Shown in pieces: positions 12,751 through 22,195 of a stretch of DNA of 64,000 nucleotides. The notes beneath the pieces are model-generated. The model ran no database searches and was not told the origin of the DNA. It worked only from the letters and a program-made list of their open reading frames with translations. Every line of letters starts with the position of its first letter. Position 1 is the stretch's first letter. The translations under genes and the position numbers were made by a program. The stretch comes from Escherichia phage Lw1: the sequence record KC801932, one strand, 5' to 3'.

Positions 12751-13809
12751 TTAAAGTCCAGTAAACGCAACGATAATCTGATAGTGGTCATCGAAGAACT
12801 CACCACGTTTCTGTTTGACTTCGTGCATAGGCATCCAGAACGCCTCTGCTGCATCGTCAGCGCCTCCCATAATACGGGGCAGACTTCCATCATTGTTAGG
12901 CTCTAACTTGATGTATTGCGCTACAGTCGGTTTTGAGAAGTGTACGGAACGCTTCGGATGGTCGAACAGCATAGAATTGCGGATTGAACCACGGATAACC
13001 TTTTCAGGAACCTTGATCCGAACTTCTTCGAGCAATTCGCGGATCGCACAATCCAGGAACGTTTCATTCGCGTTTTTGTGTCCACCTGGCAGGGCTAATG
13101 CGCCTTTACCTGGTGCAAACTTACGACGAATCACTAACACATGGTTATTACAAACAACCACGCTATCACCAGTACAACAGTTTAACGCGTCGGGGTATGG
13201 GTACGCTTTGAACTTCTCCAGTTCATCTTCCCATTTCTCGAACTCGTAGTACAAGCGCCAGAACGTATCGGTCATCATCCATCCGTTAAGAGAACCCACG
13301 ACAGCAGCAGGAACATAACGGGCGATCTTCTCGTCCCATCCATTTTTATGTAAAAAGATGGTTGGACGCAGGTCGGTAGCAGATAAATCTTTGCCGTCAA
13401 CCTTAACCGGATCAACCGGAACATGAGTCCATCCGAACGCTTTAAGCCAGTACGAATCAGCATCTTTTTCGTAACCGTAGATCGCGATGTTATCGCCTTT
13501 GGTTTCGTCGATTGCTGTACGAACAGAGGTTTTCCATTTTTCTTCATTGTAAAGGTAATCTGGAATCGGCTTGAATTGCACACGGGCTACATCTTCGTAT
13601 TTGAACTCAGACAGTAACCAGCTTGTAATCATACGTTCCCGTTCGGTTGCCGTCAGCGGGTTTAAAACGTTAGGGTAAGCATAAGCTGAACCCAGGAGGA
13701 TATAAACGGTCTTCGACTCTTCCAGTGCTTTACGCACCATTGCCGCGTGACCATTATGGAAGGGTTGGAATCTGCCAATTACGACAGCTTTATCAAATTT
13801 GTATTTCAT
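12751..13809 (-). CDS. bifunctional NMN adenylyltransferase / Nudix hydrolase (NatV/NadM-like)
   Basis: N-terminal (H/T)xGH nucleotidyltransferase motif GRFQPFHNGH; C-terminal Nudix box GGHKNANETFLDCAIRELLEEV; start set at MKYKFDK with GTGGAG RBS. Confidence 0.8.
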   Translation of the reverse strand: MKYKFDKAVVIGRFQPFHNGHAAMVRKALEESKTVYILLGSAYAYPNVLNPLTATERERMITSWLLSEFKYEDVARVQFKPIPDYLYNEEKWKTSVRTAIDETKGDNIAIYGYEKDADSYWLKAFGWTHVPVDPVKVDGKDLSATDLRPTIFLHKNGWDEKIARYVPAAVVGSLNGWMMTDTFWRLYYEFEKWEDELEKFKAYPYPDALNCCTGDSVVVCNNHVLVIRRKFAPGKGALALPGGHKNANETFLDCAIRELLEEVRIKVPEKVIRGSIRNSMLFDHPKRSVHFSKPTVAQYIKLEPNNDGSLPRIMGGADDAAEAFWMPMHEVKQKRGEFFDDHYQIIVAFTGL

Positions 13810-13834
13810 AACGTGCTCCACGTTTAAAGGGTAA

Positions 13835-13933
13835 TCATAAAACAGACGCAATAATCAATACACCAAGCAAACCGCCAATAAAGCCGAAGAATAGCGAAAT
13901 GAAGATAGATAAGATGATCTGTTTTATGTTCAT
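13835..13933 (-). CDS. possible 32-aa hydrophobic peptide
   Basis: ATG..TGA ORF below ORF-track size cut-off; single predicted TM helix; low confidence. Confidence 0.25.
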   Translation of the reverse strand: MNIKQIILSIFISLFFGFIGGLLGVLIIASVL

Positions 13934-13985: not shown

Positions 13986-14912
13986 TTATTTACGGGAATC
14001 GAAAATCACTTTACCAGCGTAATCCGAACCCATGACAGTCTGAGGTACACCACCTTTATAACGGGTAGAGTAGTTCATCTGTACATCCAGTTCTTTCCAG
14101 CGGATCATTTCTGGGGTAATTGTGCGTTGCAGTACGGCGTTAGCCTCCGCTTCTTTCTTCGCTGCGTACAGTTTAGCATCAGCATCACGTTCGTTGGCAA
14201 TCGCATCGTTTTCACGCGCCTGACGATTTGCTTCCGCTTGTTTTACCTGTTGCTGTGAAGTCTGTTCGACTTTTGCCAGTTCCGCACGAGCGGCGTTAAC
14301 CTGTTCTTCACGAATTTTCGTGTTAGTTACCTGTTCCATGATAACATCCGGCAGGGTGATATCCTGCAAGAATACCTGTTTCACGGTGTAACCGTAAGGA
14401 CGCGCATACTCTTCGACTTCCTGTTGAATTGCGGTCTGCAACTGGTTCTGGATCTTAGCATCAAACAGATCCTGTGCTTTTGGAACCGATTTGCCGAACT
14501 CGCGAACGGTTGACAGCAGTTTTTCGGTTACATACTTATCCAGTGCCTGTTCCTGGTCTCCCGCGTTGATGCGGTTGATAGGCGCTTTGTTACCGTCAAA
14601 TTGCAGCATAACGGTCATATCAACAGTGGATTTAAACTTATCCTGTGAAGGAACCTGCAATTTATCGAACTTCTTCGCAATGTCTTTCGTGCTGAAAGTA
14701 TCGAAATCAGCCAGCGGGTTTACGATATGGAAACCAGGCAGTACAGGTTTCGGAGAAACCTTACCCATGAAGGTCTGAGTTTTGACCGTGCCGTCCTGTA
14801 CTACTGTAAAGGAGTTCGGAACCAGCCACAGTGCGGCTACTACGCCCAGAGCGATCAGAGTGGTTTTCTTCGGGTTGTTCAGGATAGTATTCATATTCAT
14901 AGTATGTCTCAT
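13986..14912 (-). CDS. SPFH/band-7 (prohibitin-like) domain membrane protein
   Basis: N-terminal TM helix LIALGVVAALWLV, then SPFH-like core and long Ala/Gln/Glu-rich coiled-coil tail. Confidence 0.55.
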   Translation of the reverse strand: MRHTMNMNTILNNPKKTTLIALGVVAALWLVPNSFTVVQDGTVKTQTFMGKVSPKPVLPGFHIVNPLADFDTFSTKDIAKKFDKLQVPSQDKFKSTVDMTVMLQFDGNKAPINRINAGDQEQALDKYVTEKLLSTVREFGKSVPKAQDLFDAKIQNQLQTAIQQEVEEYARPYGYTVKQVFLQDITLPDVIMEQVTNTKIREEQVNAARAELAKVEQTSQQQVKQAEANRQARENDAIANERDADAKLYAAKKEAEANAVLQRTITPEMIRWKELDVQMNYSTRYKGGVPQTVMGSDYAGKVIFDSRK

Positions 14913-16768: not shown

Positions 16769-16973
16769 GTTTAGCCCGTTCCTCTGCTACTGCATCAAAC
16801 ACCGCGTCTTCAACTTCTTTTTCGACGAATGAAATGATTTCATCAACCATGCGATCGATGTATAATTGGTTGACATTGCGCGAATCTGGATCATCTTCTG
16901 CTGCATAATCCTGGTAAAGTTCTCCCAGTTCTTTCAGCTTGTGTTTTAACACTTTTTCTTCTTGAACTCTCAT
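16761..16973 (-). CDS. hypothetical protein (70 aa)
   Basis: ORF overlapping tk start. Confidence 0.45.
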   Translation of the reverse strand: MRVQEEKVLKHKLKELGELYQDYAAEDDPDSRNVNQLYIDRMVDEIISFVEKEVEDAVFDAVAEERAKHG

Positions 16974-17146
16974 TCTCTCGCCTCTTTACGTTCTTTATCG
17001 ATTAAGTCATCAACGAAACTGACAATATCATCCCACCAGTCCAATGCTTCCTGTGATGCTTTCGCGTCACCTTCGAGGAAACGATCGCGGGACTTTACGA
17101 AGTTCTCTACTTTCTTATAGAGTTTTTCTTTATCTGCGTTGATCAT
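16970..17146 (-). CDS. hypothetical small protein (58 aa)
   Basis: ORF below track cut-off; ATGA overlaps at both ends couple it to neighbours. Confidence 0.35.
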   Translation of the reverse strand: MINADKEKLYKKVENFVKSRDRFLEGDAKASQEALDWWDDIVSFVDDLIDKERKEARE

Positions 17147-17619
17147 AATTCCACCTTACGCATATCAATAGACGGATCGAAGTGTACCACGATGGTCGGA
17201 TAGTCGCCAGTAGAATCGTTTATAATGTCTTTAATGCGTTCCCAGTCGCCTCCAGCAAGCCCCGCACCAATAAGAGGGTAACGTTCAGGACACGCCCTGG
17301 CGCTTTCCACGGCGCTTTCAAAGCATGAACGGATTGCGTCGTAATCCACTTGTGGGCCAGCACCCCAGAACTTAAACTGGGTATAGGCGTTGAACACCAT
17401 ACGACCATCCTCTTGAACATAAACAGAGTTACGGCCCAGTTTTTTCTGGTTGCCTTTAAGCGTCATTGCATCCATTCGAAACGCGCCAGGGATTTTCTTC
17501 TTTACTTCTTTTGCAATCCCCGCACCCATATTACAGAAGCAGTTACACCCATGAATCAGGTGTACGTCACGACGAAGGAACAACTCAACAGCGTTCCCTT
17601 TAATCTCTTTGATAATCAT
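17143..17619 (-). CDS. macrodomain protein, TARG1/DarG-like (ADP-ribose processing)
   Basis: LIHGCNCFCNMGAGIAKEV matches the recalled H-C-x-S/N-x-D/C-x-x-MGAGIA core of TARG1/OARD1-type macrodomains; second Gly-rich loop GAGLAGGDW. Confidence 0.55.
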   Translation of the reverse strand: MIIKEIKGNAVELFLRRDVHLIHGCNCFCNMGAGIAKEVKKKIPGAFRMDAMTLKGNQKKLGRNSVYVQEDGRMVFNAYTQFKFWGAGPQVDYDAIRSCFESAVESARACPERYPLIGAGLAGGDWERIKDIINDSTGDYPTIVVHFDPSIDMRKVEL

Positions 17620-17711
17620 TCTTTATTACCCATTTTATAGCCGATCCCAATGACCAGCCCCATCAAAATAACCGCGCTTATCAAAAGCGCGAATTGTAGA
17701 CCTATGCTCAT
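17616..17711 (-). CDS. possible 31-aa membrane peptide
   Basis: ATGA-coupled to macrodomain gene; hydrophobic core LLISAVILMGLVIGIG. Confidence 0.3.
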   Translation of the reverse strand: MSIGLQFALLISAVILMGLVIGIGYKMGNKE

Positions 17712-17851
17712 TTAAATTGATCGTCCCATAGTTGCCACGCTTCCAGTTCATCATTGTATTCAGGGAGTGAACGTTCCCCTGGTTTCTTGACGTAATACCA
17801 GATAATGATAGCAACGGCGATAACAGTACCGTAAAAGATAATTAATCCCAT
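17708..17851 (-). CDS. possible 47-aa membrane peptide
   Basis: TAATG-coupled to upstream gene; N-terminal TM helix. Confidence 0.3.
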   Translation of the reverse strand: MGLIIFYGTVIAVAIIIWYYVKKPGERSLPEYNDELEAWQLWDDQFK

Positions 17852-18179: not shown

Positions 18180-18581
18180 TTACTCTCCAAGTACGTAAAC
18201 AAAGCGGTCTTCGATTGAATCGTTAACACATTCGTAAATTCCCCCAGCGCGTACAGCTTTACGAATGCCGGATTTTACGATTTCCATGATCTCTTTGTTG
18301 CTTCCCCATACATTCAAATTGAAGTATAGCGCACATTCGATTGGATAGTCTTCTACGTTGCGATACACATCATCACTTTCACATACAAACAGTATGCGCT
18401 TTTCTTCTCCATATTCGAAGTAAATGCTAAACGCGTTCATACTGTTTTTATCAACAGTGATTTGAGTGATTTTAACGTTCGGTTTGCTTTTGAGTTCAGC
18501 AAGAACACTCTGAATAATAGATAACGCATTCAGTTTAATAAGTCCGCATTTTCCTACAATAACACGATGTGATGTACTCAT
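18180..18581 (-). CDS. hypothetical protein (133 aa)
   Basis: ORF; preceded by hairpin/promoter cassette 18585-18650. Confidence 0.45.
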   Translation of the reverse strand: MSTSHRVIVGKCGLIKLNALSIIQSVLAELKSKPNVKITQITVDKNSMNAFSIYFEYGEEKRILFVCESDDVYRNVEDYPIECALYFNLNVWGSNKEIMEIVKSGIRKAVRAGGIYECVNDSIEDRFVYVLGE

Positions 18582-18648
18582 AATTCAACCCTCAATAGTT
18601 GGTACACACATAATAAAAAAGCCCCTGCAAAAATGCAAGGGCTTTCGA

Positions 18649-19296
18649 TTAAATAATTTGCTTTTCTTCTAACAGTTTCGCGGTATGGTTAACCATGCGA
18701 GCATAATCACGGGCTTCTTTCTTCGTATACTTGAAGCCAGCGTTATAGCTTGCCAGCGCCTTTTTCAAGTCGCCTTTGTGGTAATCAAGCCAGTATTCCA
18801 GTTCATGAATGGCAAACTTAGAACCTCCCCGAAGGGATTCGAGCTTATTGATTACTACGCGTTTGGAATATGATTTATCCATCCGTGCGGAAGCACTGTT
18901 TACAGTGACTTGCCAACAGCCATAAGCATGATGACCTTTTTTGCCCTTTCCGGTGTTCTCACATGCGCGAGATTCGATCCAGGCAATAGCCGCTAAATGA
19001 TATCCCAAACGTTTCGATTTTTCTTTTTCAGCAGGTTTTGCAGTCGTTAGATCATAGTCGTTGCCAACTCTGAAAGCATACTCCAAAACCTTTTTCTGCT
19101 TTGGTGTAATTTCGTCCAATTCCTTGACATATGCAGGGGCATTGGCTGGTGCTTTCTTGATCACTGTTGCCTGTTGAAGCGGAAGTGTTGACTGAACAGC
19201 AGGAAGTTTTTCGATGAATTCTCCTAGCGGATCTGTCTTTGCGTGACCAGAAAAAGAGCATAAGAAAATGCTGGTCGCTAAAATAATTTTCTTCAT
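18649..19296 (-). CDS. secreted lytic transglycosylase-like (SLT domain) protein
   Basis: signal peptide; SLT-like motifs IESRACEN...GAYGCWQV and ASYNAG. Confidence 0.5.
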   Translation of the reverse strand: MKKIILATSIFLCSFSGHAKTDPLGEFIEKLPAVQSTLPLQQATVIKKAPANAPAYVKELDEITPKQKKVLEYAFRVGNDYDLTTAKPAEKEKSKRLGYHLAAIAWIESRACENTGKGKKGHHAYGCWQVTVNSASARMDKSYSKRVVINKLESLRGGSKFAIHELEYWLDYHKGDLKKALASYNAGFKYTKKEARDYARMVNHTAKLLEEKQII

Positions 19297-20335: not shown

Positions 20336-21679
20336 TTAAAAGTTGTCTTCGACGAATGCTGCCAGGCGTCCACGATACACAGTATTCAGGATTATGTGAC
20401 TAGCATGGTCATATTCTTTAAGTTTTTCAACAGCATAGACAAAACCGTTGTTTACAGCAGTGTTTCGCGGGTTGTCAATCTGCTTAATATTCCCGCATAG
20501 TATCAGAAGTGTATTCTCTCCGCAACGGGAAATAATGGATTTTATTTCATGGTTGCTCAAGTTTTGACATTCGTCAACAATCAGCACTGAACCTTTACCA
20601 GGATCTGGGTGTCCGATAGAACGCCCACGGAAGTAATACAGGCTAGGGAACTGCACCACGCCTTTTTCCAGAAGTCCTTCAACGTACTTGTCAACTTCCG
20701 GTTGATCCTTAAACAGAATATTCAGGCTCGTGATACACGGTTCAACCGATGGTCGGAGTTTTTCACCCAGAGTACCAGGCAAGAACCCTATTTCACCAGA
20801 CAGCGGACTATCTGCCTTGACATACATCAGGTTTGCGAAGTGTCCCGCGTTAACCATGTGCATTGCGCCAGCAACCGCCAGCATTGTTTTACCCGAACCC
20901 GCCGCACCCATGATGGTCACAACGTCATTGTTCTTGTCCAGGATCGCATCAACGAATGACGCTTGCAGAGCATCGCGGGGCTGAATTGTTTTCATCAGCT
21001 TACGCTTTAACGCTTGTTCGTGCTTAATAGGCAACACTTCAAGCTGAAACTCTCCAGCAGCCACCACACGCCCTACAATCTCACCATCCGATAGAATGTA
21101 TTGGTTAGGGTAGAAATCCGCGTCAGGAAGCGATGAATACGTTATAACGGCAACAGGCCCGACATACTCCATGACTTCGACAGTTTCCCAGAACAGCGGC
21201 AGGTCGATATAACCTGAATACAACACATCACTATCTTTCAGCGAGTCATCGCCAGTGTATTGAAGAACCGGACAACCTTTAGACATCGCGATCAACAGCA
21301 TGTTAATGTCACGAGTCACCAGCGTTGCGCCCTGTTGAATACAGGTTGCAATGATCCGCGCATCCTGTTTATCGAGAGGGAACTCTTCGGGGCCGACATA
21401 ATCGACAATTTTGAGTGTTACACTTTCCGGTACTGCTGGGTTTGTTAAGTTTAACGAAACCCCTGTTTGGGTAATTGCTTCATAATTTTGTCCCAGGATT
21501 GCTTTGGACAATAGCCGGATCGCCAGTCGTGCTTCATGAGCGGTTCGCTCTTTGCTTTTCAGGTGATCCAGTTCTTCCATCGTTGCAGCAGTGATAATAA
21601 TTTCAGTATCAGGTTCGATGAAAGAGTAAACTGAATAGGGGTTCGAGATCAAAACGTTTGTATCGAGAACATATTTCAT
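20336..21679 (-). CDS. phoH: PIN-domain PhoH-like ATPase (YlaK-type)
   Basis: N-terminal PIN-like acidic core (LDTNVL...), Walker A GAAGSGKT, Walker B VDECQN. Confidence 0.8.
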   Translation of the reverse strand: MKYVLDTNVLISNPYSVYSFIEPDTEIIITAATMEELDHLKSKERTAHEARLAIRLLSKAILGQNYEAITQTGVSLNLTNPAVPESVTLKIVDYVGPEEFPLDKQDARIIATCIQQGATLVTRDINMLLIAMSKGCPVLQYTGDDSLKDSDVLYSGYIDLPLFWETVEVMEYVGPVAVITYSSLPDADFYPNQYILSDGEIVGRVVAAGEFQLEVLPIKHEQALKRKLMKTIQPRDALQASFVDAILDKNNDVVTIMGAAGSGKTMLAVAGAMHMVNAGHFANLMYVKADSPLSGEIGFLPGTLGEKLRPSVEPCITSLNILFKDQPEVDKYVEGLLEKGVVQFPSLYYFRGRSIGHPDPGKGSVLIVDECQNLSNHEIKSIISRCGENTLLILCGNIKQIDNPRNTAVNNGFVYAVEKLKEYDHASHIILNTVYRGRLAAFVEDNF

Positions 21680-21727: not shown

Positions 21728-22195
21728 TTACATACCCAAACGGATGATATGGATATATGGGAACGGGTGTAAATGGCTACGCATACAATAAGTGAGTGTG
21801 CGCACCAGTTCGTAACGTTCGTCCCTTGTTGTGTCGCATTCATCGAAAATCAGGTTGATCGCCTGATGTTCAATTCTACGACCGCGAAATATCGAATCCA
21901 GATCCTGTTTAACTGATAACAGAACTGTATTGTCGCAGTTTTTATCAAGTTCGTATCGAGTAGCACTGTCGATCGCCATATGCTTAGTCGGCGCAACGTA
22001 GATATTCAACACACCTTTTGATTGTTTGATGATATCAAACGCCGCTTTGGTTTTGCCACTCATACGCCCCATATCCAGAGCGGTTTCAAATACTGATACT
22101 TCCCCGATCTGTTCGCCCCATCGACCTTCAATGATACGGGACAGGTGCATATTTCTCGACTGCCTTACAGCGTCAACATAAAATTGTGAAATCAT
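21728..22195 (-). CDS. hypothetical protein (155 aa)
   Basis: ORF. Confidence 0.45.
   Translation of the reverse strand: MISQFYVDAVRQSRNMHLSRIIEGRWGEQIGEVSVFETALDMGRMSGKTKAAFDIIKQSKGVLNIYVAPTKHMAIDSATRYELDKNCDNTVLLSVKQDLDSIFRGRRIEHQAINLIFDECDTTRDERYELVRTLTYCMRSHLHPFPYIHIIRLGM

Follow-up and report, generated by a model that had tools for sequence, protein, structure and literature searches.

The locus analysed here raises the question of what a small macrodomain protein, encoded among even smaller ORFs between homologues of the T4 genes tk and vs, does for the phage that carries it. The gene lies in a 64,000-nucleotide stretch of DNA from Escherichia phage Lw1 (the window) and is a 158-amino-acid ORF that runs from ATG to TGA at positions 17143..17619 on the minus strand. 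A first-pass annotation, made from the sequence alone, had placed a TARG1/DarG-like macrodomain here; the ORF is real, although its strand had to be corrected to minus. Its product matches Lw1_gp142 of Escherichia phage Lw1, a phage of the RB16/RB43 group, at 100% identity and is called gp142 below. Nucleotide identity over the region is 98% to RB16 and about 90% to the Citrobacter phages CfP1, IME-CF2 and Miller, which places the window in a Pseudotevenvirus genome.

We analysed the fold of gp142 with both sequence and structure comparisons. The protein matches the Pfam Macro profile (PF01661; gathering score 22 bits) with an E-value of 1.1e-5 and 25.8 bits over profile positions 1-117 of 118, and it matches PHROG 335 with an E-value of 1.3e-53. 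In a phmmer comparison with PDB sequences, the order of matches was BT1257 (1.6e-6), SCO6735 (2e-5), Mtb DarG (8.5e-5) and TARG1 (2.7e-4), followed by T. aquaticus DarG. An AlphaFold2 model, for which a 56-sequence family alignment served as input, reached a pLDDT of 92.5 and a pTM of 0.89. The best PDB matches of this model in Foldseek are TARG1 (E 8e-8) and the T. aquaticus DarG macrodomain (9e-8), then SCO6735 and BT1257; ranks 1-9 all belong to the ALC1-like/TARG1-like class, and yeast Poa1p and viral macrodomains stand lower. There are 75 PDB matches at E <= 0.001, and the best 50 matches consist of macrodomains and of designs derived from a macrodomain, each with a Foldseek probability of 1.00. 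In both PADLOC and NCBIfam searches, DarG was the sole match, through its N-terminal macrodomain part only. Both glycine-rich loops, which are predicted to bind ADP-ribose, are conserved in the gp142 family. These comparisons and the model identify gp142 as a macrodomain of the ALC1-like/TARG1-like class, which includes TARG1, DarG, SCO6735 and BT1257, and not of the MacroD, PARG or viral Mac1 type. The assignment agrees with that of the first-pass annotation, which had noted a likeness to the active-site region of TARG1/OARD1 and had named a structure comparison as a check on the fold; a macro fold was indeed recovered. The TARG1 segment that it had cited, SLAHCISEDCRMGAGIA, is correct and was aligned with gp142 by HMMER (PDB 4j5r). 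On the gp142 side, LIHGCNCFCNMGAGIAKEVKKKIPG corresponds to residues 21-45, and the recognised segment is the MGAGIA loop, M31-A36.

To assign the active site, we read conserved columns from the 56-sequence family alignment and used a separate alignment that adds T4 Tk.4 and the PDB sequences. Four segments of the family alignment contain invariant residues. The H23-G24-C25-N26 segment (codons at 17542..17553, minus strand) is invariant throughout, and its N26 corresponds to Asn27 of SCO6735 and to Asn23 of the PhiKZ protein AdfM, the residue altered in the N23A mutant. The first glycine-rich, phosphate-binding loop, M31-G-A-G-I-A36 (17512..17529, minus strand), is invariant at M31, G32, G34, I35 and A36, and aligns with MGAGIA of TARG1 and MGKGIA of DarG. 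The Y79-T80-Q81 segment (17377..17385, minus strand) is invariant in all 56 members and in T4 Tk.4. Finally, the second glycine-rich loop, G118-A-G-L-A-G-G-D-W126 (17242..17268, minus strand), is invariant as G118-x-G120...G124-D125-W126 and is of the SCO6735/BT1257 type, GCGLAGGxW.

The column of Q81 is the informative one for the catalytic mechanism. In the alignment it holds K84 of TARG1 and K80 of DarG, and it holds glutamine in SCO6735 (Gln85) and also in BT1257. Similarly, A122 of gp142 occupies the column of the TARG1 catalytic Asp125, and the Lys84/Asp125 dyad of TARG1 is thus Gln81/Ala122 in gp142. The family alignment contains no conserved lysine near Q81 (K83 of the Lw1 protein is a glutamine in T4). 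In SCO6735, Gln85 takes the place of the catalytic lysine and is itself held by Asn27; the Q85A mutant is inactive, and N27S retains almost no activity (PMC9411070). That enzyme removes thymidine-ADP-ribose made by DarT and protects cells from DarT (PMC9411070). Since the numbering of the 5e3b chain, offset by 20, reproduces the known residues Asn27, Gln85, Gly87 and Lys89 of SCO6735, N26 can, as far as sequence goes, safely be equated with Asn27 and Q81 with Gln85. The resulting residue-level map of gp142 is drawn from alignments, and by these the Gln81/Asn26 pair is a predicted active site of the SCO6735 type and not of the DarG lysine type.

SCO6735 (Streptomyces coelicolor; PDB 5e3b) and BT1257 (Bacteroides; 2fg1) are the best PDB sequence matches of gp142 and are, like it, free-standing single domains that combine a glutamine at the catalytic position with the HxCN asparagine and the GxGLAGGxW loop. 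However, they are cellular and not viral proteins, are only 27-29% identical to gp142, and have GWGKGF as their first loop, where gp142 has the TARG1-like MGAGIA. In addition, the water-positioning residue, Val/Ile in this subgroup (Val25 of SCO6735) and acting through its backbone, is Gly24 in gp142, and the mobile loop that bears lysines in SCO6735 is two residues shorter in gp142 (five shorter still in T4), with lysines that are not conserved. With its TARG1-like first loop, Gly24 and shorter mobile loop, the Tk.4-type family, judged by its sequences, is thus not simply SCO6735-like.

The gene has a counterpart at the same place in T4. gp142 and T4 Tk.4 (158 and 155 amino acids) are 35% identical (E 3e-27; residues 1-151 against 1-155) and share the invariant motifs HGCN...MGxG...YTQ...GAG, and both genes sit in a translationally coupled run between tk and vs. 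The order in the window is tk-orf70-orf58-macro-orf31-orf47-vs-orf133-vs.1, and that in T4 is tk, tk.1, tk.2, tk.3, tk.4, vs, vs.1, regB. The two proteins differ in that T4 is a Tequatrovirus and Lw1 a Pseudotevenvirus, in the loop after Gln81, which is five residues longer in gp142, and in the second glycine loop (GAGLAGGDW in gp142, GAGIGKGNW in Tk.4). By similarity and gene order, gp142 is the Pseudotevenvirus orthologue of Tk.4. T4 tk.4 (NP_049723) is annotated as ‘phosphatase; contains A1pp phosphatase motif’, and an A1pp match in the tk.4 orthologues of T4-like phages, RB43 included, has been known since 2006 (PMC1524935). We found relatives of gp142 in 2,727 phage records, which cover T4-like, rV5-like and Felix O1-like phages as well as phages of Pseudomonas and Vibrio; their annotations read ‘phosphatase’, ‘macro domain protein’ or ‘hypothetical’. 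Among myoviruses, about 41% carry a macro domain of some kind (PMC9503650).

The arrangement of the genes around gp142 is one of continuous coupling. The first-pass annotation had described the macrodomain gene as the head of an ATGA-coupled chain that runs into tk. The downstream part of that description stands: the macrodomain gene overlaps the 58-amino-acid orf58 by an ATGA stop/start at 17143..17146 (minus strand), which is the downstream cassette boundary, orf58 overlaps orf70 in the same way at 16970-16973, and orf70 and tk overlap by 8 nucleotides. The position at the head does not, as the chain also extends upstream, via two tiny ORFs to vs. The 31-amino-acid orf31 is joined to the macrodomain gene by an ATGA overlap at 17616..17619 (minus strand), which is also the upstream boundary of a gene-sized indel; the 47-amino-acid orf47 is joined to orf31 by another at 17708-17711, and the vs homologue and orf47 overlap by 1 nucleotide. 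Because the same ATGA coupling is found upstream of it, the macrodomain gene is an internal member of a long coupled run, which extends at least from orf133 (18180..18581) to tk. A promoter scan found 7 sigma-70-like sites, compared with 12.4 in shuffled controls, and none directly upstream of the macrodomain gene. The vs homologue matches PHROG 1256, and the vs.1 homologue, separated from vs by one further ORF, carries an SLT domain. Further upstream, a strong hairpin followed by a T-run (18646..18617) lies directly after vs.1. A gene encoding CTP_transf_like and NUDIX domains (NadM-Nudix-like) lies 3.3 kb from the macrodomain gene.

Published work on relatives of gp142 bears directly on its role. 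T4 without AdfA and without the NADAR enzyme AdfN stayed resistant to DarTG2 (PMC11825919), so another anti-DarTG2 factor was to be expected in T4. In a 2025 preprint describing HIDEN-SEQ, a T4 transposon library grown on a DarTG2 host yielded tk.4 as the single significant gene, and a clean tk.4 knockout sensitised T4 to DarTG2 (bioRxiv 10.1101/2025.11.20.689424). The gene was named adfM, for anti-DarT factor Macrodomain; from this genetic evidence, its authors inferred that the protein takes ADP-ribose off DNA (bioRxiv 10.1101/2025.11.20.689424). Independently, gp104 of PhiKZ was named ‘AdfM’ in a 2026 Cell Reports paper (PMC13309987). Purified PhiKZ gp104 strips DarT2-installed ADP-ribose from a TNTC oligonucleotide, its N23A mutant has reduced activity, and the protein rescues both DarT2 toxicity and phage growth (PMC13309987). 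The counter-defence against DarTG that the first-pass annotation had proposed is thus borne out in the T4 orthologue, and the idea of an anti-DarTG2 macrodomain is correct but already published for relatives of gp142.

The two proteins that now bear the name AdfM are quite different from one another. Like gp142, PhiKZ gp104 is a single phage macrodomain with a conserved catalytic-site asparagine, and it acts against DarTG2. However, it is imported into the phage nucleus and is of the lysine type, with an ‘FPTK’ motif; its identity is 37% to Mtb DarG (E 2e-26) and 27% to the Lw1 protein, and its E-value of 0.12 to T4 Tk.4 is no significant match. By these comparisons, two macrodomain lineages, the Tk.4 type and PhiKZ gp104, share one name. 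Because gp104 belongs to a different, lysine-type lineage, its biochemistry should be transferred to the Tk.4 type at the class level only.

The relationship to DarG, the antitoxin of DarTG2 (T. aquaticus and M. tuberculosis; PDB 5m31, 5m3i; NCBIfam NF048014), is also one of class. DarG shares the predicted substrate and is found by Foldseek, as given above, but it is a protein of about 330-340 amino acids with a C-terminal DarT-binding domain, which the 158 residues of gp142 do not include. gp142 scores 26.1 bits against NF048014, for which the family cut-off is 250, and matches positions 15-149 of 338 in that profile and 9-148 of 329 in the PADLOC profile. Lys80 of DarG is replaced by Gln81, and no darT lies beside the gp142 gene, which is flanked by small phage ORFs, vs and tk. 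Human TARG1/OARD1 (PDB 4j5r/4j5s), which cleaves thymidine-ADP-ribose, is similarly close in structure (TM 0.79, normalised to the target) and shares the CxMGAGIA loop. We rejected the possibility that gp142 is a captured DarG, as it lacks both the C-terminal domain and the lysine and stands at a near-equal distance from SCO6735/BT1257, DarG and TARG1: the BLAST scores of the Lw1 protein are 41-42 bits for SCO6735/BT1257, 39 for DarG, 38 for TARG1 and 37 for PhiKZ gp104. The earlier term ‘antitoxin-type’ macrodomain is therefore apt for the class, which is that of DarG, and less so for the protein, in which the catalytic lysine is an invariant glutamine and the DarT-binding domain is absent. 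gp142 would thus work like the DarG macrodomain, but it stands outside the DarG family.

By analogy with these proteins, we consider it likely that gp142 is a free-standing ADP-ribosyl glycohydrolase of the TARG1/DarG/SCO6735 class whose job is counter-defence against DarT2-type toxins. Infection would unleash a DarT2-type toxin of the host, which would put ADP-ribose on thymidines of single-stranded phage DNA, at TNTC motifs, and this modification would block replication or packaging. gp142 would then hydrolyse the thymidine-ADP-ribose bond, so that the DNA is restored and ADP-ribose is released. The chemistry would follow the scheme of SCO6735 and not the lysine scheme of DarG and TARG1: Gln81, held by Asn26, would position the distal ribose, and water would do the chemistry. 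Since every tested member of the class (DarG, TARG1, SCO6735 and fly Targ1/3) cleaves thymidine-ADP-ribose on single-stranded DNA, the class-level case for this hydrolysis is strong; for gp142 itself, we infer both the hydrolysis and the DarTG2 phenotype by analogy. The location of one bacterial relative in the immunity position behind an ART toxin module also counts in favour of this reading.

The chief rival to this reading is that reversal of DarT2 is only one of several activities of gp142. Most of the bacterial relatives that we sampled are stand-alone and have no neighbouring DarT, and the substrates met in nature could therefore be more varied, or others altogether. A broad-spectrum ADP-ribose eraser would act mainly on proteins or on other nucleic-acid adducts, which would fit with the activity of SCO6735 on both DNA and protein substrates (PMC9411070) and with the spread of relatives across widely differing phage lineages, in about 2,700 records. 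It would also fit with a Vibrio relative (48% identity), encoded two genes after an orphan Rhs-type Tox-ART-HYD1 toxin module, and with an Undibacterium relative that is translationally coupled to a DraG-like ADP-ribosylglycohydrolase. However, these are the only two of the six bacterial contexts sampled with ADP-ribosylation genes; a consistent DarT or ART neighbour was not found among the six, as an ART toxin and an ARH hydrolase occur once each and the other four contexts are uninformative. We therefore rejected guilt by association as an argument here, the contexts being too few and too mixed. Moreover, DarTG2 is the only reported condition that makes tk.4 important in T4 (bioRxiv 10.1101/2025.11.20.689424), T4 with Tk.4 is still strongly restricted by CmdTAC, an mRNA ADP-ribosyltransferase system, and SCO6735 is inactive on phosphate-linked adducts and on RhsP2 2'-OH RNA adducts. 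We thus regard a predominantly broad-spectrum role as rather unlikely. A related proposal, which we put forward only tentatively, is that the Tk.4-type macrodomains of T4, Lw1 and the roughly 2,700 records are a lineage of their own, kin of the free-standing bacterial erasers and not captured DarG antitoxins, in which a lysine-free Gln/Asn mechanism may allow wider substrates and blunt several ART defences at once. If this were true, some of the bacterial kin would confer immunity to ART toxins that are secreted.

Other substrates, or none, would be required by three further explanations, each of which is much less probable than counter-defence against DarT2. The first-pass annotation had offered self-regulation as an alternative, in which the macrodomain reverses the ADP-ribosylation or RNAylation of host proteins by phage Alt, ModA or ModB. 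T4 does have its three ARTs together with Tk.4, and writer-eraser pairs are common. However, when we searched the complete RB16 genome (98% nucleotide identity to the window over shared sequence) and the window by tblastn for T4 Alt, ModA and ModB, no homologue was detectable (best E 0.62), and RB43 carries the macrodomain gene and is reported to be without alt (PMC1524935). The relatives, furthermore, occur in many phage groups, and the class is the thymidine-ADP-ribose class. These results weaken the self-regulation alternative to the point where we think it very improbable. A small-molecule enzyme, acting on ADP-ribose-1''-phosphate or O-acetyl-ADP-ribose and perhaps linked to NAD salvage genes, would account for the ‘phosphatase’ annotation of Tk.4 and many relatives, for Poa1p among the fold matches and for the CTP_transf_like and NUDIX gene in the vicinity; but the label comes only from an old domain name (SMART A1pp), Poa1p ranks below TARG1, DarG, SCO6735 and BT1257, we noted nothing of the Tpt1/KptA type in the region that would supply Appr1p, and the T4 phenotype is specific to DarTG2 (bioRxiv 10.1101/2025.11.20.689424). 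There is, in our estimate, similarly little chance that such an activity is the main one. Least probable of all, and scarcely credible to us, is a non-catalytic antidote that binds DarT2 or its modified DNA and for which hydrolysis is secondary. It draws on the observation that catalytically dead SCO6735 Q85A, DarG K80A and TARG1 K84A still act as DarT inhibitors in vitro (PMC9411070), and AdfA and AdfB do work by binding DarT. The invariance of the full set of active-site residues across the family nevertheless argues for selection on catalysis, and the domain by which DarG binds DarT has no counterpart in gp142.

With counter-defence against DarT2-type toxins as the preferred reading, the anti-DarTG2 function of T4 AdfM would extend to the RB43/RB16 group. 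The present analysis introduces no new kind of biology; it adds the active-site assignment, the distinction between two lineages named AdfM, and natural pairs of phages with and without the gene. The conserved Gln-type site of the family should guide mutagenesis and work on the mechanism of AdfM.

The natural pairs emerged when we compared homologous loci by tblastn with the window proteins. Both orf58 and the macrodomain gene are present in Lw1 and in RB43 (macrodomain 77% identical), and both are absent from RB16. The other two phages each have one of the genes: CfP1 has the macrodomain (86%) and not orf58, and Miller has orf58 and not the macrodomain. At every junction of the locus, a stop codon overlaps a start codon, as ...GAATGA... 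or ...TTATGA..., and the junction of orf31 and orf70 in RB16 is the Lw1 sequence minus everything between two AGAATGA repeats. Such precise presence and absence, as read from these sequences, is what one would expect of an accessory gene on which selection fluctuates. In protein identity to CfP1, tk, orf31, orf47 and vs.1 reach 96-98%, so that the macrodomain (86%) is more diverged than these near-identical flanks, though orf70 (84%) and orf133 (86%) are equally so. RB43 shows greater divergence along the entire locus, and the 77% of the macrodomain falls within the 63-95% of its neighbours. Presence and absence among near-identical phages, together with faster divergence than the flanks compared, is consistent with an arms-race gene.

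Lw1 and RB16, as well as CfP1 and Miller, are thus natural test pairs with and without the macrodomain. Phages with and without the gene are predicted to differ in host range on Enterobacteriaceae that carry DarTG2, which is relevant to the choice of therapeutic phages, and if the Tk.4-type lineage does blunt several ART defences, the same pairs would be ready-made isogenic host-range tests. RB16, whose complete genome encodes no macrodomain anywhere, keeps an orthologue of AdfN/gp30.3 (42% identity), which lies outside the region covered by the window.

When the macrodomain locus of Lw1 (window 16970-17619) was compared with those of RB16 (locus L001, 2350-2400), Miller (L004, 1511-1551) and CfP1 (L005, 1340-1380), we found indels of whole-gene size that are bounded exactly by ATGA junctions. 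The RB16 locus is without both macro, the macrodomain gene, and its downstream neighbour orf58; the Miller locus is without macro only, and the CfP1 locus without orf58 only. Removing from Lw1 the stretch between two AGAATGA repeats yields the RB16 junction, and this correspondence in sequence suggests that small genes are shuffled here with coupled stop/start sites serving as recombination joints. Further upstream, the vs.1 homologue, which contains an SLT transglycosylase domain, is intact in the window (18649-19296, minus strand); in RB16 (L001 3404-4588) it is split, with an HNH homing-endonuclease gene alongside.

Between vs and macro lie two tiny ORFs of 31 aa (17616-17711) and 47 aa (17708-17851), both on the minus strand. 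Since their N-termini are strongly hydrophobic, the products are likely single-pass membrane peptides. Both ORFs show 97-100% conservation in RB16, Miller and CfP1; the PHROGs they match are without assigned function, and the RB16 and CfP1 annotations omit the 31-aa ORF.

The name AdfM was coined independently by two papers for phage macrodomains, namely T4 Tk.4 (10.1101/2025.11.20.689424) and PhiKZ gp104 (PMC13309987). Judged by their sequences, these proteins are members of different lineages: T4 Tk.4 is a Gln-type macrodomain, PhiKZ gp104 is Lys-type and DarG-like, and pairwise BLAST between the two gave no significant match. A bacterial relative with 48% identity to the macro protein is encoded in Vibrio rhizosphaerae (GCA_033542595.1; L006 5207-6459), where the gene order is an orphan toxin module matching Tox-ART-HYD1 (E 1.7e-15), an 83-aa ORF and then the macro relative; transposases and a complete Rhs toxin gene lie beside them. 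From its gene context, this macrodomain looks like an enzymatic immunity gene against a polymorphic ART toxin.

Another gene of the window (12751-13851, minus strand) codes for a protein of 366 aa that combines a cytidylyltransferase-like domain with a NUDIX domain and resembles NadM-Nudix (NMN adenylyltransferase/ADP-ribose pyrophosphatase). Together with a nicotinamide phosphoribosyltransferase encoded elsewhere in the RB16 genome, it looks like a phage NAD+ salvage pathway, into which macrodomain-released ADP-ribose could also feed.

The leftward gene run that includes macro is headed by a gene (20336-21679, minus strand) for a 447-aa protein in which a PIN domain (PIN_4, E 5.7e-16) at the N-terminus is fused to a PhoH-like ATPase (E 7.6e-36); directly upstream of this gene is a sigma-70-like promoter match (21773..21744). 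A 308-aa SPFH/Band 7 domain protein (13986-14912, minus strand), annotated as 'lipoprotein' in RB16, is encoded next to the rI.-1/rI lysis-inhibition genes.
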